Shown: piece by piece, positions 49,664-61,281 of the stretch | How the letters are laid out: every line of letters begins with the position of its first letter | Numbering within the stretch: position 1 is the stretch's first letter | Origin: Rhodocyclaceae bacterium | GTDB lineage: Bacteria; Pseudomonadota; Gammaproteobacteria; Burkholderiales; Rhodocyclaceae | Length of the DNA: 64,000 bases | Reading direction: 5' to 3' | Assembly: GCA_022072095.1 (NCBI GenBank) | Contig: JAJVIJ010000013.1 | Span: forward strand, 109,273 to 173,272 | Translations under genes and position numbers: made by a program | Notes under the pieces: model-generated | Seen by the model: the letters and a program-made list of their open reading frames with translations, nothing else | The model's database searches: none | Told to the model about the DNA's origin: nothing

Positions 49664-51130
49664 ATGGGAAAACCGACCGGTTTCATCGAGTATCAGCGTC
49701 TGAACGAAGCCTACGCCCCCGCCGCCGAGCGCATTCGGCACTATCGCGAATTCGCGTTGCGGCTGGATGACCGTCAGGCCTCGTTGCAGGGTGCGCGCTG
49801 CATGGACTGTGGCATTCCGTTCTGCACGCATGGCTGCCCGGTGAACAACATCATTCCGGACTGGAACGACCTCGTATACAGGAATCGATGGCGCGCGGCG
49901 ATCGACGTTCTTCATTCCACGAACAATTTTCCGGAACTCACCGGGCGCATTTGTCCGGCACCGTGCGAAGCCGCATGTACGCTGAACATCAATAGCGAGG
50001 CGGTCGCCATCAAGTCGATCGAACGCTCGATCATCGACCACGCCTGGGAGCAAGGCTGGGTCGTGCCGCAGCCCGCGTCCGTCAAGACCGGAAAGAAAAT
50101 CGCCATCGTCGGCTCCGGCCCGGCCGGGTTGGCTTGCGCGCAGCAACTCGCCCGCGCCGGACACGCGGTCACCGTGATTGAAAAGAACGATCGCGCGGGT
50201 GGCCTGCTCCGCTATGGCATCCCGGATTTCAAGCTGGAGAAGGTCCAGATCGATCGCCGCATCGAGCAGATGCGCGCCGAAGGGGTCGAGTTCATGACCA
50301 GCACGCTGGTTGGCGCGCTGCCCGCGGGCAGTGTCGTCACCAATCTCGCGACCCGGCGACTCGATCCCGAGACCCTGCTGGGCGAGTTCGACGCACTTGT
50401 GCTGGCGGGTGGTGCCGAGCAGCCGCGTGACCTGCCGATTCCCGGCCGTGAGCTGGACGGAATCCATTTCGCGATGGAGTTCCTGCCGCAACAGAACCGT
50501 GTCAACGCCGGCGATGCGCTCACTGGCCAGCTCCGCGCCGACGGCAAGCATGTCGTGGTCATCGGTGGTGGCGACACTGGCTCGGACTGTGTCGGCACGT
50601 CGATCAGACAGGGCGCCGCCTCCGTCAGCCAGTTCGAGTTGCTGGCGCAACCCCCGGAACAGGAAGACAAGGCGCTGGTCTGGCCGTATTGGCCGATCAA
50701 GCTGAGGACATCCAGTTCTCACGAGGAAGGATGCCGGCGTGACTGGGCCGTCACCACCAAGGCGTTCCTTGGCGAGAATGGCCGGATCAAACGCTTGCTG
50801 GCAGCGCGTGTGCGTTGGGAGAACGGCAGAATGTCCGAGATTCCGGGCAGCGAATTCGAGATGCCGGCCGATATGGTCTTGTTGGCCATGGGGTTTGTGG
50901 GCCCGGTAGCCAGCGTCCTGGACACCTTCGGCGTCGAGAAGGATGCACGCGGCAATGCCCGCGCCGGCACCGAAGGCCCGGGCTGCTACGCCACCAACGT
51001 GCCCAAGGTTTTTGCGGCCGGCGACATGCGCCGTGGCCAGTCGCTCGTCGTCTGGGCGATACGCGAAGGCCGGCAGTGCGCGCGCGAGGTCGATGCCTTT
51101 CTCATGGGCCGGTCTGATCTGCCGCGTTAG
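49664..51130 (+). CDS. gltD: Glutamate synthase (NADPH) small subunit
   Basis: 488 aa starting [12 protein letters not shown]. Fe-S cysteine clusters are present along with two dinucleotide folds ([10 protein letters not shown] and VIGGGDTG). Confidence 0.97.
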
Positions 51131-51938
51131 GCGCAGGCGGGCCTGGCGCCGGTGGGCCGCGGCGCTGCTGCCGAGCGCGCTGCTGCTGGGCGTCGGTTTG
51201 GCGCTGGCCACCTCGCCTGCCAATCAGGGGTTGTTCATGCTCGGCAATGCCTGGAGCCGAACCCTGCCCGATGCGTTCTGGTCCGCCCTGACATTGCTGG
51301 GGACCGCGGCCGGTGCCTTCGCGCTGTTCGGCCTGCTGCTCAGGGCCCGTCCCCAGTACTTTGCTGCCGGCATGCTTGCCGCCCTTCCCGGCAGCCTTTA
51401 CTCCTATGGCCTGAAGCGCATCATGGACTTGCCCAGACCGGCCGCCGCGCTCGCATCCGGGCAGTTCCACCAGATCGGCGAGGTGCTGCGACACCACGCC
51501 TTTCCTTCGGGTCATGCACTCACCGCCTTCGCCTTCGCCGGCATCGTCCTGTGGCTGCCACCACGCCGGCGGGTGGTGCCCATCGCGCTCGCGGTCGCAC
51601 TGGCTGCGGCCGTGGCGGTGAGCCGCATCGCGGTGGGAGCACATTGGCCGGCAGACCTGCTCGCCGGTGCCGCGGGAGGCTGGCTGGCGGCCGCGATCGG
51701 CGTCGCGTGGAGCGAACATTGGCGCTTCTGGGAGTGCCGCCGCGGCGTCGTGGTCATGGCCACCGTCCTGGCGGGCATGGGTGTCTACCTGTGCTATCAG
51801 GATCTCGGCTACCCGCTCGCCGGCGAATTCCAGTATGGGCTGGCCGCTCTGGCATTCATCGGTTGTGTCGCCGCCCTGCTGCCATCGCGGCCGGAGGCCG
51901 CCCGGCCACCAGCGCATCCTGTTCGGCAACAGGAATGA
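51093..51938 (+). CDS. PAP2-superfamily membrane phosphatase (start uncertain)
   Basis: The tripartite PAP2 motif is visible: [14 protein letters not shown] and [14 protein letters not shown]. There are several TM helices. The only ATG upstream of the first helix (51093) lies 38 nt inside gltD. The alternatives are an in-frame TTG near 51197 or the ATG at 51236. Confidence 0.72.
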
Positions 51939-52188
51939 TCCTAGAAACCTCAGTTGATTGCTCCATGCCGTTGCGGACATCAGCATGCACGCTGACTTTT
52001 CTGCCCTTGCTCGCCTTCACCTGTTGGGCGAGATCGCTACGTACCCGCTGGCACGCCTGCTCACGCGCCTGCCTTTGTCGCGCCTCCTTGCAGGCCCCGG
52101 CCTGCGGCGTCGTTGCTTCGTGGCAGGCACGCGATCAGACGCACCATCGGGCGCGTCCAACTGCGGCTTCTAGGATGATCGAAACAAC

Positions 52189-53151
52189 ATGATCCGACGC
52201 ATCGGCACGGTCGCGCTCACCCTCGCGCTCGTGCTCTGGGTGCTGGCACAAAGCTCGCCCGGAAATTTCGAAACATTGCTCGCGCGCGCCGGCTGGTCGG
52301 CGATGCTGCCGGCCGTGCTCGGGCTGTTCGCGAGCTATGCGCTGCGTGCGCTGCGCATCTGGGACGAGTTCCGCCACGACACCGCATTGAGCTATCTGGA
52401 CTGCTTGCGTCTGATGCTGATTCATAACGCGTTCGTGAACCTGTTGCCATTGCGCAGCGGCGAGCTGGCGTTCCCGGTACTGCTCAAGCGTCACGCCGGG
52501 ATTGGCTACGCGCGCTCGACCGGTTCCCTCCTCTGGTGGCGACTCCAGGACATCAGCGTGCTCCTGGGCATCGCCGCGCTGGCCTGGCCGGAACTGCCCC
52601 CCGCCATGCGAGTGCTGGTGCTGGCGGGCTGGTTTGCGCTGATATTCGCCGGTACTGGCTACGCACACCGCTATGAGTCCCGGCTGGACACTCTGTTCGC
52701 TTCCAGCCCCGGGATGCCGACGACGGGCCTGTTCGGCAAGCTGCTCGTCGCGTTCGCTCAGGCGACGCGCGCGTCGAGACGCGGCTGGCTATGGACCATC
52801 GCGAACTGGAGCGTCAAACTCGTCGCCCAATCGATACTGTTGGCAGCCCTGTTGCCCGGTGAATTGCGCGTCGCGGCAGTGGGTGTGCTCGGCGCGGAAG
52901 CGGCCGCCGTGCTGCCCGTACAAGGTGTGGCCGGCTTCGGCAGTTTCGAGGCGGGCGCCGCGGCCGCGCTTGCCACCCAGAGCTATGCGTTTTCCGACGG
53001 GCTAAGGGTCGCGCTGCTGCTGCATCTGTTCGTTCTCGCCTGTGCCGTGCTGGCTTCCTTCCCGGCCTGGCTACTCCAGCGATCTTCGACTGCATCGCTG
53101 TTAAGCTCAACCGAAAAAGCCGGACGATCCGGAGACACACCGACACCATGA
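52189..53151 (+). CDS. Lysylphosphatidylglycerol-synthase TM-region-like (UPF0104, flippase-like) membrane protein
   Basis: 320 aa polytopic protein. The N-terminal pattern ..ALTLALVLWVL..W..L..A..L....Y.LRALRW/IW.. resembles the MprF flippase-region family. No C-terminal synthase domain is present. Assignment by recognition only. Confidence 0.65.
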   Translation: MIRRIGTVALTLALVLWVLAQSSPGNFETLLARAGWSAMLPAVLGLFASYALRALRIWDEFRHDTALSYLDCLRLMLIHNAFVNLLPLRSGELAFPVLLKRHAGIGYARSTGSLLWWRLQDISVLLGIAALAWPELPPAMRVLVLAGWFALIFAGTGYAHRYESRLDTLFASSPGMPTTGLFGKLLVAFAQATRASRRGWLWTIANWSVKLVAQSILLAALLPGELRVAAVGVLGAEAAAVLPVQGVAGFGSFEAGAAAALATQSYAFSDGLRVALLLHLFVLACAVLASFPAWLLQRSSTASLLSSTEKAGRSGDTPTP

Positions 53152-54188
53152 ACACTGCTACCGGCCCCGCGACGCCCGGCCAATCAACCGCTCCCGCTCA
53201 CCGCCTTTCCGTTGTCATCCCGATGTACAACGAAGTGGACAACTGCGCGCCGCTGCTCGAACGCATGCATGCCGCGCTCGCGTCCTACCCCCACCCCTGG
53301 GAACTGATTCTGGTCGATGACGGCAGTACCGACGGTACGGTCGAGGCACTGTCCTTCCTGTCGGCCGAATACGGTCCCCATGTCCGGGTGATCCCGCTGG
53401 TGCGCAACTACAAGCAGACCGCAGCCATGCAGGCCGGACTCGATGCCGCACGCGGTGACGTCATCGTGACGATGGATGGCGATCTTCAGAACGACCCGGA
53501 AGATATTCCGCGCATGGTCGCGCGACTGCTGAACGAACAACTGGACCTGGTCGCCGGCTGGCGCAAGGACCGCAAGGACAACTGGCTGCTTCGTCGTCTG
53601 CCCTCGCAGCTGGCCAACCGGCTGATCGCACGCGCAACCGGTGTCAGGCTGCACGACTATGGTTGCAGCCTGAAAGCGTTCCGCGCGAGCACCATCAAGC
53701 GAGTGAAGCTCTACGGCGAAATGCACCGCTTCATTCCTGCGTGGCTCACGACGGTGACGCGACCTGGACGCATCGCCGAGGAGGTGGTCAATCACCATCC
53801 GCGCATACTGGGCCAGTCCAAGTACGGGCTCTCGCGCACCTTCCGCGTCGTGCTCGATCTGGTATCGGTCTATTTTTTCATGCGTTACCGCAGCCGGCCG
53901 GGCCATTTCTTCGGCGGCATCGGGATCGCGCTCGGGCTGATCGGCGGCGCCATTCTGTCCTATCTGATGGCGCTCAAGCTGATCTATGCCGAATCCATCG
54001 GCACGCGACCACTGTTCTTCCTTGGATTTTTCCTGGTCATCGCGGCACTGCAGATGGTCACCACCGGCGTGCTCGCGGAGATCGTCGCACGCGTGTACTT
54101 CGAGTCTGGGGCCAGCCAGCTCTACCTGGCCCATGATGAGGACAATCTCCCGGACGAACAGGCCGGCTGGCATCAGCCCAATCCATGA
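53148..54188 (+). CDS. GT2 polyprenyl-phosphate glycosyltransferase (ArnC/GtrB/DPM1-like)
   Basis: 346 aa with LSVVIPMYNE, ILVDDGSTDGT and MDGDLQNDPEDI motifs plus two C-terminal TM helices, the ArnC/GtrB-type architecture. ATGA overlaps join it to both neighbours. Confidence 0.88.
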   Translation: MNTATGPATPGQSTAPAHRLSVVIPMYNEVDNCAPLLERMHAALASYPHPWELILVDDGSTDGTVEALSFLSAEYGPHVRVIPLVRNYKQTAAMQAGLDAARGDVIVTMDGDLQNDPEDIPRMVARLLNEQLDLVAGWRKDRKDNWLLRRLPSQLANRLIARATGVRLHDYGCSLKAFRASTIKRVKLYGEMHRFIPAWLTTVTRPGRIAEEVVNHHPRILGQSKYGLSRTFRVVLDLVSVYFFMRYRSRPGHFFGGIGIALGLIGGAILSYLMALKLIYAESIGTRPLFFLGFFLVIAALQMVTTGVLAEIVARVYFESGASQLYLAHDEDNLPDEQAGWHQPNP

Positions 54189-55726
54189 GCGCACGCGGTG
54201 GGCTGTGGCACTGGCTGGTGTTGGTCTTGCCGCTGGCAAGTTTTCTGCCATGGCTCGGCACGCCGCCGCTGTTCGACGTCGATGAAGGCGCGTTCGCGGA
54301 AGCCACGCGCGAGATGTTCGAGCGCGGCGACTTCCTGTTCACCTATCTGAACGGCTCGCCGCGCTTTGACAAGCCTATCCTGAGCTACTGGCTCCAAGCC
54401 TTGTTCGTTGCGCTGCTGGGTCCCAACGAATGGGCCTTCCGCATGCCGTCCGCGCTCGCGGCTTGCGCGTGGTCCTGGGCGGTCTGGCAATTCGCCAAGA
54501 CGTATTTTTCCGAAGACACCGCGAATCTGGCACTGGCCATCACGGCGACCGCGATCGGCCCCTTCCTGATCGGTCGCGCGGCGACCGCCGACGCCTTGCT
54601 CAATCTCTGGCTCGCGCTCGCCTGCTTCGATGCCTGGCGTCATGTCAATGGTGGCGGCAAGGCACCGCTGCGGCGCTGTTACCTCTGGGTCGGCCTCGGG
54701 TTGCTGACCAAGGGCCCGGTGGCCGCGCTCATCCCGATCGCCGTCACGCTGATGTACGCGCTGAGCACGCGGACGAGCGCCTCCATCAAGATCTGGCTTG
54801 CCGCGATCCGTGACCCCGTGGGTTGGCTGATCCTGCTCGCCGTCGCCGCCCCCTGGTATGGGTTCGCCTGGCAGCGTCATGGCATGGATTTCATCCGCGG
54901 ATTCCTGCTGCATCACAACCTGTCGCGCTTTTCCGGCCCGCTCGAAGGCCATGGTGGCGGCCTGTTCTACTACCTGATCGTGATTCCGCTGCTGCTCATG
55001 CCCTGGAGCGGGTTGTTGGTCCCCATGCTAGCCCGTTTGCGACATGATCTGCGCGATGCGCTCACCCGCTTTCTGTGGCTATGGGTCGGCTTCGTATTCG
55101 TGTTTTTCACGCTGTCCGGAACGAAGCTGCCGCACTACGCACTGTACGGGACGACACCCTTGTTCCTGCTGCTCGCCCGACGGACGAACGCGCACCATGG
55201 CCTGTGGTCGCTCGTGACGCTCGCGCTGCCGGCGCTCTGGCTGCTGGTGCTGGCCTTGCTGCCGTCGATCATCACCGTGCTGACAGCGCAGGTTTCCGGC
55301 TACTACCAAGCCCAGTTCGCGCGGGCCGCCCATCAGCTCGCGCCTGGCTACTACCCAATGACACTGGGCGCCCTCGCCGTCTATTTCGTGATCGCCAACC
55401 GCAAGGCCTGGCCGATCGGTCGCAGGCTTGCAGGCGGAGCGGCTTTATCCTCCCTCACGCTGGCGGCAGTCGTCGCACCATGGATCGGCGATGTGCTGCA
55501 GGGCCCGGTCAAGACGGCCGGACTCCGGGCGCGCTTGCAGCCCGCCGTGCTTTGGAACTTCGGCGCGCCCAGCTTCAGCGTATACCGTCAAGCGGTAACG
55601 CCCGTGCGTCCGCCACAGCCCGGCGAACTCGCACTGACTCGTAGCGATCGCCTCGATGCCGAAGCCTTGCGGCAAGTCGAGATCGTCTATCAGGCCGGCG
55701 GTGTGGTGTTGGTCAGACGTCGATGA
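54185..55726 (+). CDS. GT-C glycosyltransferase, ArnT-like (family 83/39)
   Basis: 513 aa polytopic protein. The N-terminal loop PLFDVDEGAFAEATREMFERGDF..RFDKPILSYW aligns by eye with the ArnT loop PLFQTDEARYAEIPREM..GDW..YFEKP..YW. Confidence 0.85.
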   Translation: MSARGGLWHWLVLVLPLASFLPWLGTPPLFDVDEGAFAEATREMFERGDFLFTYLNGSPRFDKPILSYWLQALFVALLGPNEWAFRMPSALAACAWSWAVWQFAKTYFSEDTANLALAITATAIGPFLIGRAATADALLNLWLALACFDAWRHVNGGGKAPLRRCYLWVGLGLLTKGPVAALIPIAVTLMYALSTRTSASIKIWLAAIRDPVGWLILLAVAAPWYGFAWQRHGMDFIRGFLLHHNLSRFSGPLEGHGGGLFYYLIVIPLLLMPWSGLLVPMLARLRHDLRDALTRFLWLWVGFVFVFFTLSGTKLPHYALYGTTPLFLLLARRTNAHHGLWSLVTLALPALWLLVLALLPSIITVLTAQVSGYYQAQFARAAHQLAPGYYPMTLGALAVYFVIANRKAWPIGRRLAGGAALSSLTLAAVVAPWIGDVLQGPVKTAGLRARLQPAVLWNFGAPSFSVYRQAVTPVRPPQPGELALTRSDRLDAEALRQVEIVYQAGGVVLVRRR

Positions 55727-57165
55727 GCCGGCGTACGGCCTGGGCGCTGCTCATGTCATTCGCAGCGGCCGTGACCCTGTACCGGATCTGGCTGGTCGGG
55801 CATCTGGGCATCGATCTTTACGTCGACGAAGCCTACTACTGGTCCTGGTCGAAGGCGCTGGACTGGGGCTATTACTCCAAGCCGCCCGCCATCGCCGCGG
55901 CCATCGCGATGTCGACCGCTCTGTTCGGCGACACCGCACTCGCAGTCAAGGCTCCCGCGTTCCTGCTCTACCCGGCCACCGCACTGGTGCTGGCCGGGAT
56001 CGCACAAAGCCTGTTTGGCCACCGGGCGGCGCTGGCGGCCGGCGTGATGTTCCTGTCGCTGCCGATCGTTGGCGCGCTCGCGCTGTTCGTCTCGACCGAC
56101 GCGCTGCTGATGTTCTTCTGGGCCGCGGCCATGGCCTGCTTTCTGCATGCGCTCGCACACGGCCGCTGGTCGTCATGGCTGGCAACCGGCGTACTGGTCG
56201 GCCTGGGCCTGCTCAGCAAGTACACGATGGCGATCTTTCTGCCGTCGGCACTGCTCGGCATGCTCTGGGTCCCGGCCTACCGCCGTCAGCTGGCGACGTG
56301 CAAGCCATGGCTGGCGGCATTGGTCGCCATCGCGTTGCTTGCCCCCAATCTCCATTGGAATGCCCGGCATGGCTTTCCAACCTTTGCCCACACCGCCGAC
56401 ATCACGCATCTGGGCCAGCCCGGCGGTGCGGGCAGCGCTCCGCTCAGGTATGTCCTTGAGCAATGGCTCGCGTTCGGGCCGCTGCTCGCGCCCTTGCTGG
56501 TCTGGGCGCTGCTGCGCAATCGACCGATCTGGGCGGACCCGCGCATTCGGATGCTGGTTGCCATGTCATTGCCGCTGCTCGGTCTCGTCGCCGTGCAGGC
56601 GCTGCGCGCCGAAGTCAACGGCAATTGGGCCGCCCCCGCCCTGCTGGCGCTCGTCGTCATCGCGGCGGGACGCATTCCGGGACGTTGGCTCGCCCCGGCG
56701 ATCGCGCTCAATCTCATGGCTGCGGCCGCGCTCCATCACTGGCCGGATCTGGCCCCGGCTCTCGGCAGACCTCTCGACGCGCACAACGACCCGTACAAGC
56801 GCGCACGTGGCTGGCGGGATTTCGGCGAGGCCGTGGCGCATTACCTGCGCGCCCATCCGCAAGCCACCGTGCTCGCCAGCGACCGTGAACTGCTGGCGGA
56901 AACCTTGTTCTACGCCCGCCCGCAGGCGATCGCCGCCTGGCGCCCGCAGGCGCACTCCGCCGATCACTACCAGCTGGTCGCCGCACTCGATGCTCCGCGC
57001 ACCGGCGATTTCCTGCTCTTGGCGCGCGGTCCTGACAACGATGCGATCACCCGTCACTTCCGCAGCAGTCAGTCGCTCGCTCAGGTCCGCATCCGCGTTC
57101 ATGCGGATCTCGAACGCACGGCGCATATCTTTCTGTTGCGCGACTTCAAAGGCTATTCGCCATGA
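55723..57165 (+). CDS. GT-C glycosyltransferase, PMT_2/family 39-like (second, divergent paralogue)
   Basis: 480 aa polytopic protein with the motif DLYVDEAYYWSWSKALDWGYYSKPP, typical of the bacterial PMT_2/ArnT-related family. The C-terminal soluble region is about 130 aa. It is clearly different in sequence from the 54185 protein. Confidence 0.8.
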   Translation: MSRRTAWALLMSFAAAVTLYRIWLVGHLGIDLYVDEAYYWSWSKALDWGYYSKPPAIAAAIAMSTALFGDTALAVKAPAFLLYPATALVLAGIAQSLFGHRAALAAGVMFLSLPIVGALALFVSTDALLMFFWAAAMACFLHALAHGRWSSWLATGVLVGLGLLSKYTMAIFLPSALLGMLWVPAYRRQLATCKPWLAALVAIALLAPNLHWNARHGFPTFAHTADITHLGQPGGAGSAPLRYVLEQWLAFGPLLAPLLVWALLRNRPIWADPRIRMLVAMSLPLLGLVAVQALRAEVNGNWAAPALLALVVIAAGRIPGRWLAPAIALNLMAAAALHHWPDLAPALGRPLDAHNDPYKRARGWRDFGEAVAHYLRAHPQATVLASDRELLAETLFYARPQAIAAWRPQAHSADHYQLVAALDAPRTGDFLLLARGPDNDAITRHFRSSQSLAQVRIRVHADLERTAHIFLLRDFKGYSP

Positions 57166-57833
57166 ACATCGAGAGGATCGTGTTGATCGCGGCCGTTGCG
57201 GCCGGCCTGCTGTTCACGCTGCTGCCACAAATCGACCTCGCGCTGACCAGCCTGTTCTTCACCCCTGGACGTGGCTTTCCGGCAAACGACTCGTCCTGGG
57301 TCATCGCGATCTATCGCGGCGTGCCGATCGCGACGCGCGTCCTCGTCGTGGGTCTCGCCATCGGACTGATCGCGAGCCTGATCACGAGCCTGGTCCGGCG
57401 CTCGGCGGCAACCCGGACACGATGCGTACAGCTCGCGTTTCTGCTCACCGCGATCGCGCTCGGACCGGGACTCATCATCGACGCCGGCCTGAAAGATCAC
57501 TGGGGGCGTGCCCGCCCGGCTCAGGTGCAGGAGTTCGGCGGCGCACGCCGGTTCACACCGGCATTGCAGCCGGCAAACGAGTGTCCCGACAATTGTTCCT
57601 TCGTCAGCGGGCACGCGGCCTTCGGCTATCAGCTGATCGCGCTGGCCTATCTGGGCGATGCGCGTCGGCGCCGCCGCTGGCTGCTCATCGCATTGCTGGC
57701 CGGATCCTCGCTGGGCCTGCTGCGCATTGCGCAAGGCGCGCATTTCCTGTCCGACATCGTGTTCAGCTTCTTCTTCACCTGGCTGGGAAGCTGGACTGCC
57801 TATCTGATCTGGCGGCGCGCTCTCGTCAAATGA
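57162..57833 (+). CDS. PAP2-superfamily membrane phosphatase (LpxE-like candidate)
   Basis: 223 aa with LKDHWGRARP, CSFVSGH and LRIAQGAHFLSD motifs. It is the last gene of the overlapping chain. Confidence 0.8.
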   Translation: MNIERIVLIAAVAAGLLFTLLPQIDLALTSLFFTPGRGFPANDSSWVIAIYRGVPIATRVLVVGLAIGLIASLITSLVRRSAATRTRCVQLAFLLTAIALGPGLIIDAGLKDHWGRARPAQVQEFGGARRFTPALQPANECPDNCSFVSGHAAFGYQLIALAYLGDARRRRRWLLIALLAGSSLGLLRIAQGAHFLSDIVFSFFFTWLGSWTAYLIWRRALVK

Positions 57834-59565: not shown

Positions 59566-60191
59566 GGCTGCGCTCCAGGCGTGACGGGGGAAGCGAGTTC
59601 TCGGGATGGCTTGAGCTGCCCGCCGGCCGGTGCCGCTGTCGGCGCGATCGGGCCGTCCTTGCGTTTGGGCTGGATCAGCGCACGCACCCGGTTTCCCGCG
59701 CCGGCGCGCGGAACCGTGGTCGCATTCGGCCCGTTGGTGACGACGTAGTTTTCGGTGATGCCGTCATACTCGATGTATTGACCCCGCACTTCGTCGTCGC
59801 CGTTCCGCACCCAGGCGCGGTCGAAAAAGCGCGCAAGCTCGGTCTTGGCATCGTGCTCGATGCGCTCGGCTTCGCCTTCGAACCAGATGTCCTTGCCCTC
59901 GCGCTTCTGGCGAAAGCGCGCGAGACTGTTCGCACTGCCGTAGGCGACTCCGCGCTGGTAACCCTCGGCGTCCTGGGTGATGACGATCTTGTCGCCACGT
60001 ATCGTCAGTGTGCCCTGGGTCATGGTCACCCGTCCCTCGAATACCTGGATCTTGTTGCGGTCGTCGACCGTCACCTTGTCGGCCTCCAGATTGACGGGCT
60101 TGTCGCGATCCGCGCGCTCGGCGAAGGCCGTGACCGCAAACCCCAGACACAGCATTCCCAGACAGCCTTTCAGTACGATTCGATCGATCAT
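59562..60191 (-). CDS. lptA: LPS transport periplasmic protein LptA
   Basis: 209 aa with a signal peptide and OstA-like repeats (PVNLEADKVTVDDRNKIQVFEGRVTMTQGTLTIRGDKIVI). It follows lptC with a 4-nt overlap. Confidence 0.87.
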   Translation of the reverse strand: MIDRIVLKGCLGMLCLGFAVTAFAERADRDKPVNLEADKVTVDDRNKIQVFEGRVTMTQGTLTIRGDKIVITQDAEGYQRGVAYGSANSLARFRQKREGKDIWFEGEAERIEHDAKTELARFFDRAWVRNGDDEVRGQYIEYDGITENYVVTNGPNATTVPRAGAGNRVRALIQPKRKDGPIAPTAAPAGGQLKPSRELASPVTPGAQP

Positions 60192-60769
60192 GACTTCTTG
60201 CGCTCTATGGTTGCCTGCACGTTATTCAGAAAACGAAATTCGCCTTTCAGATTGTCTGCGACCATACCCTCGGCCGAACCATGCGAGTTGCCTTCGACAA
60301 AACGGACCGGCGCATCGGTGCGTGCGAGCTCATCATCGGGAAACACGGTCAGCCGCTCGGTCGTGAGGCGGAACTCGGCACGCTCGCCCCTGGCTTCACG
60401 GACGACGAGCACATCGCCGTGCAAACGGACCTCGACACCGTCAGCCGAGACCCAGGCCGCGCGCGCGCTGATGCGTGTGGGCCGATCCGGACGCACATAG
60501 CGCAACTGAGGCGATTCCAACTCGGTGCTGTCGTCGTCCGGGAAATGCGTCATGGCCCGGGCGTTGAGCCGATAGCGCAGCGCCCCGGATTGGTCATAGC
60601 GTTCGAGCATCATATTCTTCGCGATGAAGTCCGGGTCGTGCCGGTGTGCCCCCTTGCTGGCGACGCCATCGAAGTCGACGACCTTTTGCAGCCAGTAAGT
60701 CGCCAGCGCCAGAACCCCGACGATCAGCAAGGGGAACAGGCCGGAGGCCGATGCCCTCACTCGAGCCAT
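60188..60769 (-). CDS. lptC: LPS export system protein LptC
   Basis: Track ORF trimmed to MARVRASASGLFPLLIVGVLALATYWL (TM anchor), followed by a beta-jellyroll-type sequence. It lies between kdsC and lptA. Confidence 0.82.
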   Translation of the reverse strand: MARVRASASGLFPLLIVGVLALATYWLQKVVDFDGVASKGAHRHDPDFIAKNMMLERYDQSGALRYRLNARAMTHFPDDDSTELESPQLRYVRPDRPTRISARAAWVSADGVEVRLHGDVLVVREARGERAEFRLTTERLTVFPDDELARTDAPVRFVEGNSHGSAEGMVADNLKGEFRFLNNVQATIERKKS

Positions 60770-61281
60770 GGTGCCAGCACCGCGTCGAGGCGTCCTTGCG
60801 CCAGTAATATGGCTTCGCAGATCTCGCGTACCGCACCGCGCCCACCCGAACGGTTGGCGACCATGCCGGCGCGCGCGCGCACGAGTGGATGGGCATCGGC
60901 CGGACATGCACAGAACCCGCAGGCCCGCATGACGGGAAGGTCGACCACATCGTCACCCATATAGCCACACTCCCGCAAGCTCACGCCCGCCTCTTCGGCC
61001 AGCTCGGCCAGCGCACGAACCTTGTCGGCCACACCTTGACGCACAAACCTGATGCCCAGTTCGTCGGCGCGAATGCGCACGGCTTCCGAGACCCGTCCGG
61101 TCACGATCGCCACCTCGATGCCACCCGCGCCGAGCAGCTTGAGGCCGTGGCCATCCAGCGTATGGAATGCCTTGTAGGTGTCGCCGGCGGGTCCGAACCA
61201 CAACGTGCCATCCGTCAGCACGCCGTCCACATCGAACGCCATCAGGCGCACCGCATCCATGCCGGCAAGCTTGCCGCTCAA
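60757..61281 (-). CDS. kdsC: 3-deoxy-D-manno-octulosonate 8-phosphate phosphatase
   Basis: 174 aa HAD protein (LMAFDVDGVLTDG .. GDDVVDLP), upstream of lptC. Confidence 0.9.
   Translation of the reverse strand: MSGKLAGMDAVRLMAFDVDGVLTDGTLWFGPAGDTYKAFHTLDGHGLKLLGAGGIEVAIVTGRVSEAVRIRADELGIRFVRQGVADKVRALAELAEEAGVSLRECGYMGDDVVDLPVMRACGFCACPADAHPLVRARAGMVANRSGGRGAVREICEAILLAQGRLDAVLAPWLE

Follow-up and report, generated by a model that had tools for sequence, protein, structure and literature searches.

The DNA analysed here (hereafter the window) is a stretch of 64,000 nucleotides from a Rhodocyclaceae bacterium (contig JAJVIJ010000013.1, positions 109,273 to 173,272). It harbours six co-oriented membrane-protein genes on its plus strand that we consider as a candidate system for remodelling lipopolysaccharide (LPS) in the vicinity of lipid A. 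The cluster starts with a PAP2-type phosphatase gene (PAP2a, 51093-51938, 281 aa; PF01569, E = 2.7e-19), which is followed by a non-coding spacer of 250 bp (51939-52188). The next five genes encode a membrane protein of the PF03706/UPF0104 family (52189-53151, 320 aa; LPG_synthase_TM, E = 6.5e-18), a family 2 glycosyltransferase (GT2, 53148-54188, 346 aa; Glycos_transf_2 PF00535, E = 1.6e-34), two glycosyltransferases of the GT-C type (GT-C A, 54185-55726, 513 aa, E = 6e-18; GT-C B, 55723-57165, 480 aa, E = 2.8e-32; both PMT_2 PF13231) and a second PAP2 protein (PAP2b, 57162-57833, 223 aa; PF01569, E = 1.4e-19). A previous inspection of the DNA letters without database searches (the sequence-only reading) had proposed these six open reading frames (ORFs), their coordinates and their domain content. 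All of them were recovered, and the matches of all six proteins exceed the curated Pfam cut-offs.

The last five genes form a continuous chain, as also described previously, with an ATGA stop/start overlap at all four junctions (53148, 54185, 55723 and 57162), which implies co-translation. PAP2a stands outside this chain, and the spacer that separates it from the PF03706 gene contains a weak terminator-like hairpin (51980-51995). Since the two genes are spaced here but overlap in the called genes of N. umoris, A. toluclasticum and N. mangrovi, PAP2a may be transcribed separately in the window locus. At its other end, PAP2a shares 38 nt with the 3' portion of gltD, its proposed ATG lying at 51093 and the gltD stop at 51128-51130.

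Both PAP2 proteins carry the complete catalytic motifs of their family, which could be assigned residue by residue. These are K108/R115/P116 (Kx6RP), S139-H141 (SGH) and R178/H184/D188 (Rx5Hx3D) in PAP2a, and K111/R118/P119, S149-H151 and R188/H194/D198, respectively, in PAP2b. They are invariant among 49 orthologues of PAP2a and 22 orthologues of PAP2b. Clusters of arginines occur N-terminally (RRRR) and within the short loop that joins the helices of motifs C2 (SGH) and C3 (Rx5Hx3D) (PPRRR/DARRRRR). Following the positive-inside rule, they would orient the active sites of both proteins towards the periplasm, as anticipated by the sequence-only reading. That reading had also brought LpxE and LpxF into play for the pair; PAP2b is LpxF-like, and PAP2a is weakly LpxE-like. 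PAP2b aligns over its full length with the LpxF model NF045633 (136 bits, 10-215 of 217 positions; cut-off 400), with the next family at 50 bits, and its orthologues score between 125 and 137 bits against the same model. It is therefore best described as an LpxF-like PAP2 protein and a candidate lipid A 4'-phosphatase, with no match in a sequence search of the PDB. For PAP2a, the best solved relative is LpxE from Aquifex (6EBU, 35 bits, residues 43-208), with PgpB close behind (33 bits). Its NCBIfam matches are weak (PgpB, SepP and UppP), and one of its orthologues reaches 22 bits against the LpxE model of H. pylori. These similarities point weakly to either a candidate lipid A 1-phosphatase (LpxE-like) or an undecaprenyl-diphosphate/lipid phosphatase. 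In Tepidimonas, PAP2a directly overlaps GT-C A by 4 nt, the pair occurring without the other genes of the cluster, and a search of plasmids returned no PAP2a homologue.

The PF03706/UPF0104 family corresponds to the flippase domain of MprF. In the window, the match of the first chained gene product extends over nearly the whole model (residues 7-287, model positions 4-299 of 302) with 65.7 bits for a gathering threshold of 33.4. The gene is always located directly upstream of the GT2 gene in related loci, and no solved structure was retrieved with the protein in a sequence search of the PDB. It is predicted to be the flippase of a polyprenyl-phosphate sugar. This role had already been suggested from the window alone and agrees with the existing prediction that members of the PF03706 family all serve as flippases in glycosylation (PMC5898192; see also 10.1101/2022.03.11.483950). 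In archaeal AglD, the domain is fused to a dolichyl-phosphate sugar synthase, and its neighbours include GT-C genes similar to those of protein O-mannosyltransferases (PMT) and STT3 (PMC5898192). Bacterial examples are HexF and GpgF, which are attached to glycolipid synthases (PMC10128005, PMC12713373).

The GT2 protein displays the layout of ArnC, GtrB and DPM1 that had been recognised earlier, with a DGDLQN motif in its catalytic domain and two C-terminal hydrophobic transmembrane helices (segments 253-281 and 283-314). Among proteins of solved structure, it comes closest to ArnC (172 bits), followed by GtrB (108 bits), and it is 34% identical to ArnC of E. coli. The DxDLQ metal/nucleotide motif (DGDLQN, 110-115) is aligned with DADLQN of ArnC, and R139, R142, R149 and S153 are aligned with ArnC R128, R131, R137 and S141. 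Both the DADLQN motif and the Arg/Arg/Arg/Ser set that holds undecaprenyl phosphate were described for ArnC (PMC12690121). The ArnC structure paper presents UDP-bound and apo structures together with simulations, none of them with the full sugar donor bound. Since the signature residues are kept in 71 of 72 orthologues, the protein is, as judged from its sequence, a polyprenyl-phosphate glycosyltransferase of the ArnC/GtrB/DPMS type, which would make a lipid-linked sugar donor.

The nature of this donor can be narrowed down from the gene content of the loci. ArnC proper was rejected as an assignment for GT2, given its 190 bits for a cut-off of 529 (NF007986) and the lack of ArnA/B/D at these loci. 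Homologues of ArnA, ArnB, ArnD, ArnE or ArnF were found neither in the window nor within ±10 kb of about 90 related loci, which extends to the relatives the absence of ArnA/B/D noted by the sequence-only reading. In addition, no sugar-nucleotide gene recurs in the flanks of the related loci. The lack of both Arn tailoring genes and recurrent sugar-nucleotide genes at the loci would fit a housekeeping nucleotide sugar, hexose or uronic acid, as donor. As the search spanned the loci and their flanks, 4-amino-4-deoxy-L-arabinose or another tailored sugar may still be the donor.

The two GT-C proteins share no similarity detectable by BLASTP (E = 0.1), in line with their initial description as different from each other. 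GT-C A matches the ArnT model NF009784 with 132 bits (residues 10-430) and is aligned with ArnT of C. metallidurans (5EZM, E = 2.8e-19). Its residues D33, K63, D136, R248 and Y318 fall on D55, K85, D158, R270 and Y345 of ArnT, and D62 falls on E84. These ArnT-equivalent residues are invariant among 85 orthologues, and the Zn ligand H267 of ArnT is replaced by an asparagine. On the basis of this alignment, GT-C A appears to be a transferase of the ArnT family (GT83) and the constant transferase of the module. No match for GT-C B was found in a sequence search of the PDB. Its AlphaFold model (predicted local distance difference test score, 88.5) finds ArnT as best fold match in the PDB (1.5e-9, versus 2e-5 for the protein O-mannosyltransferase Pmt4), and its residues D35/E36, S52/K53 and D126 never vary among 50 orthologues. 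According to the model, GT-C B would be a second ArnT-fold transferase, unrelated in sequence to GT-C A and optional in the module. As ArnT is the closest match for both proteins, neither of them leans towards the PMT clade, a grouping that had been named beforehand as incompatible with the proposed function. An assignment of either as ArnT proper was rejected on their scores (132 and 46 bits for the cut-off of 567 of NF009784).

The distribution of the cluster was explored with one genome per species, yielding 80 loci with a GT-C A orthologue (50-57% identity). They belong nearly all to Rhodocyclales (Zoogloea, Azoarcus, Aromatoleum, Thauera, Denitromonas, Uliginosibacterium, Niveibacterium and others), with a few from Burkholderiales such as Tepidimonas and Azohydromonas. 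The six window proteins were mapped on the 67 loci with enough flanking DNA. The most frequent architecture is PAP2a/flippase/GT2/GT-C A/GT-C B (22 loci), followed by the same arrangement without PAP2a (16 loci) and by PAP2a/flippase/GT2/GT-C A/PAP2b (seven loci). All six genes are found in six loci, from Niveibacterium and its relatives, and this is supported by the called genes in N. umoris. The remaining forms are PAP2a/GT-C A only (four loci, Tepidimonas), flippase/GT2/GT-C A (four loci, Thauera), flippase/GT2/GT-C A/PAP2b (three loci), PAP2a/flippase/GT2/GT-C A (two loci), GT-C A alone (two loci) and GT-C A/GT-C B (one locus). The six-gene order is thus real and recurrent, yet a minority form, and the constant core is flippase/GT2/GT-C A, which keeps the same order across Rhodocyclales genera. 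Since this order recurs in about 80 Rhodocyclales genomes, and the catalytic residues named above show little or no variation among 22 to 85 orthologues, the gene arrangement is not a chance juxtaposition.

An independent genomic context ties GT-C B to LPS. Some of the genomes that lack GT-C B beside GT-C A encode an orthologue of the same degree of similarity at another place. This orthologue heads, in Thauera sinica, Azoarcus olearius and Azoarcus sp. L1K30, an operon of msbA and LPS-core genes, whose MsbA passes the TIGR02203 equivalog (708 bits for a cut-off of 602). These operons also carry a GT9 heptosyltransferase, GT4 enzymes and a Wzy_C ligase-type protein, as well as HldE in Thauera sinica only. 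Between GT-C B and msbA, they encode a phosphatase of about 220 aa of the protein tyrosine/dual-specificity (PTP/DSP) type with the sequence HCKSGADR, corresponding to the CX5R signature (L085:10965-11630, L086:9515-10177 and L091:9452-10153 in the three Rhodocyclales genomes). The Thauera sinica and Azoarcus olearius versions of this phosphatase share 66% identity. In Azoarcus sp. L1K30, the phosphatase and GT-C B genes overlap; in Thauera sinica, the series from GT-C B to msbA is interrupted by HldE. By analogy, the protein resembles CtpA of Caulobacter, a PTP homologue that is needed for the loss of the lipid A phosphates before galacturonic acid is added and that is encoded beside the msbA operon, where it was proposed as a stand-in for LpxF (PMC9393093). 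A comparable PTP-like gene with MsbA next to GT-C B was also considered for the Zoogloea-type loci devoid of PAP2b and was rejected, with none found within ±10 kb. Upstream of the operon of Azoarcus sp. L1K30 (L091:5348-7779) lie an Acetyltransf_5/FeeM-like gene, an acyltransferase gene and a metallophosphatase gene. They may be further envelope-lipid genes, the first two possibly forming an ornithine-lipid pair of the OlsB/OlsA type.

Independently of these operons, relatives of GT-C B and PAP2b are found side by side in Alphaproteobacteria, where plasmids of Martelella and Rhizobium carry PAP2b homologues (35-37% identity) next to GT39 genes that resemble GT-C B. On the plasmid NZ_CP054859.1 of Martelella sp. 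NC18 (L089:6965-10467), an operon comprises an LpxF-like PAP2 (37.5% identical to PAP2b), a polyprenol-phosphate GT2, GtrA in the slot of PF03706 and a GT39 enzyme (29% identical to GT-C B), and it adjoins a histidine kinase/response regulator pair. On Rhizobium tumorigenes plasmids, the LpxF-like PAP2 gene is located about 1 kb from the GT-C B-like GT39 gene. In both cases, the C2 motif of the PAP2 protein reads SGE, not SGH. Transferases of the GT-C B type therefore adjoin a phosphatase in three settings, with two unrelated phosphatase folds.

From the gene families, their intact catalytic residues, the operon structure, its conservation and the genomic links to MsbA and the LPS core, we infer that the locus specifies a periplasmic system that remodels lipid A-proximal LPS and combines a lipid-linked glycosylation module with lipid A phosphatases. 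We assign to this reading a probability of about 0.55. The ArnC-type GT2 would act at the cytoplasmic face by loading the sugar of a housekeeping nucleotide sugar onto undecaprenyl phosphate, and the PF03706 protein would flip the resulting undecaprenyl-phosphate sugar across the membrane. At the periplasmic face, after the flipping of lipid A-core by MsbA, PAP2b would remove a lipid A phosphate, and the LpxE-like PAP2a would probably remove another one. Finally, with the lipid-carried sugar as donor, the two ArnT-fold GT-C enzymes would glycosylate two distinct acceptor sites. On the pattern of the LpxE/RgtF and LpxF/RgtD pairs of rhizobia, we favour PAP2a acting with GT-C A at one position of lipid A, the second position being served by PAP2b and GT-C B. 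The individual parts of this scenario differ in strength. A three-component lipid-linked glycosylation module is highly probable, and its acceptor is likely to be lipid A or the inner core. The replacement of at least one lipid A phosphate by a sugar has slightly better than even odds, and the replacement of both phosphates is doubtful.

A series of observations weighs against this remodelling system. No match of the cluster proteins reaches any equivalog cut-off, and a lipid A structure for Azoarcus, Thauera, Zoogloea, Rhodocyclus or Aromatoleum was not found in the literature searched. The phosphatases are dispensable at the locus, as 26 of the 67 loci lack PAP2a and 51 lack PAP2b. If anything, GT-C B and PAP2b are negatively associated, PAP2b being present in 6 of the 45 loci with GT-C B versus 10 of the 22 loci without it; 39 loci display GT-C B without PAP2b. 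The self-contained six-gene kit put forward by the sequence-only reading is not supported either: with all six genes in only 6 of the 67 loci, the locus is no obligate kit. The same applies to its location. The window cluster is flanked by gltBD on one side and by a hydrolase gene, an enoyl-CoA hydratase gene and lptA-lptC-kdsC on the other side. The nearby lpt genes announced previously are indeed present in the window. Their closeness is not conserved, since these flanks are shared by no related locus, and it must be regarded as incidental and peculiar to the window genome. Accordingly, lptA/lptC/kdsC and gltBD were both rejected as conserved neighbours; the usual neighbours at related loci are purL, an M23 peptidase gene, a bactofilin gene and ppsA.

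As the presence of the phosphatases is mosaic, two alternatives to the replacement of lipid A phosphates stay alive, and we consider each of them unlikely. ArnT, FlmK and LgmB add a sugar onto the lipid A phosphates, and one or both GT-C enzymes could decorate these phosphates in the same manner, without any replacement. The PAP2 proteins would then work separately, either in the supply of undecaprenyl diphosphate/undecaprenyl phosphate or in the removal of a phosphate whose position is left bare. Since the positions with which ArnT holds undecaprenyl phosphate and the sugar are conserved in GT-C A (D33, K63, D136, R248 and Y318), this enzyme could act on a phosphate like ArnT rather than replace it. 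Besides, 20 of the 67 loci combine GT-C gene(s) with no PAP2 gene, PAP2a is about as similar to PgpB and undecaprenyl-diphosphate phosphatases as to LpxE, and the 10 loci with PAP2b and no GT-C B would fit a simple 4'-dephosphorylation. It is more difficult to reconcile decoration with the repeated finding, in unrelated lineages, of PAP2 and PTP-like phosphatase genes that abut or overlap GT-C genes. Moreover, phosphate decoration usually serves to add a cationic sugar, yet no amino-sugar tailoring genes lie near any locus. The other alternative distributes the targets, with GT-C A acting on lipid A, GT-C B on the inner core (3-deoxy-D-manno-octulosonic acid or heptose) and PAP2b as an independent 4'-phosphatase. 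Glycosylation of the inner core is performed by RgtA-C in Rhizobium, and the genomic context of GT-C B suits an inner-core acceptor as well as lipid A, its orthologues lying among core genes in the three genomes described above (GT9 heptosyltransferase, GT4 enzymes and Wzy_C, with HldE in one of them). The fact that GT-C B and PAP2b are mostly found apart points in the same direction. In those same operons, however, GT-C B is immediately upstream of a phosphatase and of MsbA, its gene in the window shares an ATGA overlap with PAP2b, and on the alphaproteobacterial plasmids GT-C B-like genes are paired with an LpxF-like PAP2, all of which speak against this alternative.

Far less probable is an acceptor unrelated to LPS, such as periplasmic or outer-membrane proteins, a glucan or an exopolysaccharide, or the export of a glycolipid by GT2 and the flippase in the manner of HexSDF or GpgSDF. 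PMT_2 is admittedly a broad family, and PF03706 flippases are known as partners of glycolipid synthases (PMC10128005, PMC12713373). However, the GT2 protein has the full signature of a polyprenyl-phosphate glycosyltransferase, unlike the fold of diacylglycerol or PG glycosyltransferases; by annotation, HexS is a monogalactosyldiacylglycerol synthase (PMC10128005), and GpgS belongs to GT4 (PMC12713373). The proximity of both GT-C proteins to ArnT, the LpxF-like character of PAP2b and the link of GT-C B with MsbA and core genes also argue for LPS as the target.

The closest known parallel to the proposed remodelling of lipid A is the galacturonosylation of lipid A in rhizobia and Aquifex. There, RgtE synthesises polyprenyl-phosphate galacturonic acid, LpxE and RgtF act at position 1, and LpxF and RgtD act at position 4' (PMC7663294, PMC9393093). 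The window resembles this system by its gene classes and their adjacency, in that an ArnC-like GT2, a phosphatase of the PAP2 type and a GT-C of the ArnT fold are encoded side by side. It would also share its logic, namely a periplasmic dephosphorylation followed by glycosylation from a lipid-linked donor, each of two sites having a phosphatase and a transferase of its own. It differs in its betaproteobacterial host (Rhodocyclales), in the gathering of both phosphatase/transferase sets in one translationally coupled operon together with a PF03706 gene, and in the optional presence of half of its parts (the phosphatases and the second transferase) across relatives. The Arn pathway, through which 4-amino-4-deoxy-L-arabinose is placed on lipid A phosphates, offers a second comparison, as GT2 is nearest to solved ArnC and GT-C A is aligned with ArnT with its key residues kept. 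In contrast to this pathway, the scores remain far below the equivalogs (190 versus 529; 132 and 46 versus 567), a PF03706 protein replaces ArnE/F, and PAP2 genes, which Arn does not need, are present. The triad of PF03706, polyprenyl-phosphate GT2 and GT-C is also reminiscent of archaeal AglD, a GT2-UPF0104 fusion, and of the neighbourhood of arCOG00899 with an AglD-like GT2 and a PMT/STT3-like GT-C (PMC5898192). The archaeal system is assigned to protein N-glycosylation, whereas the window triad is joined to homologues of lipid A phosphatases in a Gram-negative host. Finally, the Martelella operon similarly unites phosphatase, donor synthase, flippase and transferase. It differs from the window by GtrA, a GT2 of another subfamily, a single transferase, a single phosphatase with SGE and the adjacent two-component regulator.

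The concept of a clustered polyprenyl-phosphate galacturonic acid synthase, LpxE and galacturonic acid transferase is not new, since rgtE-lpxE-rgtF clusters were described in Oligotropha carboxidovorans, Mesorhizobium, Azorhizobium and Aquifex (PMC7663294). The window locus is most likely a betaproteobacterial variant of this rhizobial-type system and no new kind of biology; to a lipid A specialist, it should appear plausible rather than surprising. Its value lies in little-charted and environmentally important bacteria, and in the ready-made comparative test offered by the variation among cultured relatives. It is important to recall that Rhodocyclales such as Zoogloea, Thauera, Azoarcus and Aromatoleum dominate wastewater flocs and plant endophytic niches, and that the replacement or removal of lipid A phosphates alters the charge of the outer membrane, the resistance to polymyxin and cationic peptides, and the recognition by Toll-like receptor 4. 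The most far-reaching version of our proposal, which we put forward tentatively, is that Rhodocyclales produce a lipid A with both phosphates replaced by neutral or acidic sugars through one self-contained operon, with a PF03706 flippase for the undecaprenyl-phosphate sugar, as a first case in Betaproteobacteria. If the remodelling model holds, an unusual lipid A would be accounted for by a single small operon, which would also provide a portable kit for lipid A engineering, and the PF03706 protein would be the first in bacteria to act as flippase of a polyprenyl-phosphate sugar. In the far-reaching version, the relatives would represent a natural deletion series (core only, with PAP2b, with GT-C B, or with GT-C B moved next to a CtpA-like PTP and MsbA), from which the two phosphatase-transferase pairs could be assigned to positions 1 and 4'. 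Such a series would also reveal that lipid A phosphatases of the PAP2 and PTP types are interchangeable.

Regarding the surroundings of the cluster, its position wedged between unrelated genes, compared with its location beside purL in relatives, suggests that the whole module was relocated in the window genome. The region from 50.5 to 58.9 kb, spacer included, gave no match in an Rfam scan, and no sigma-70 promoter was found by a scan of the same region. Terminator-like hairpins are not enriched (seven, versus 5.0 ± 2.2 in shuffles). The AT skew ranges from -0.12 to -0.27 over positions 51000-57500 of the window and is near zero in the flanks, while the G+C content across the cluster is slightly higher than upstream (0.65-0.69 versus 0.61-0.63). 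These shifts probably stem from the hydrophobic membrane proteins, whose codons are rich in T, and not from a foreign origin. Exact-sequence look-ups with the window GT-C A and several homologues returned no record. Identical proteins are recorded from a Rhodocyclaceae metagenome-assembled genome, where both GT-C genes were automatically named ArnT. At the downstream end of the cluster, the PAP2b stop overlaps the stop of a convergent alpha/beta-hydrolase gene by 8 nt (57826-57833). Further downstream, the mechanically called ORF of lptC (60188-60907) would encode 239 aa, and the LptC domain fits a product of 190 aa with a start near 60760, just after the kdsC stop; the N-terminal extension of the longer form is probably untranslated.

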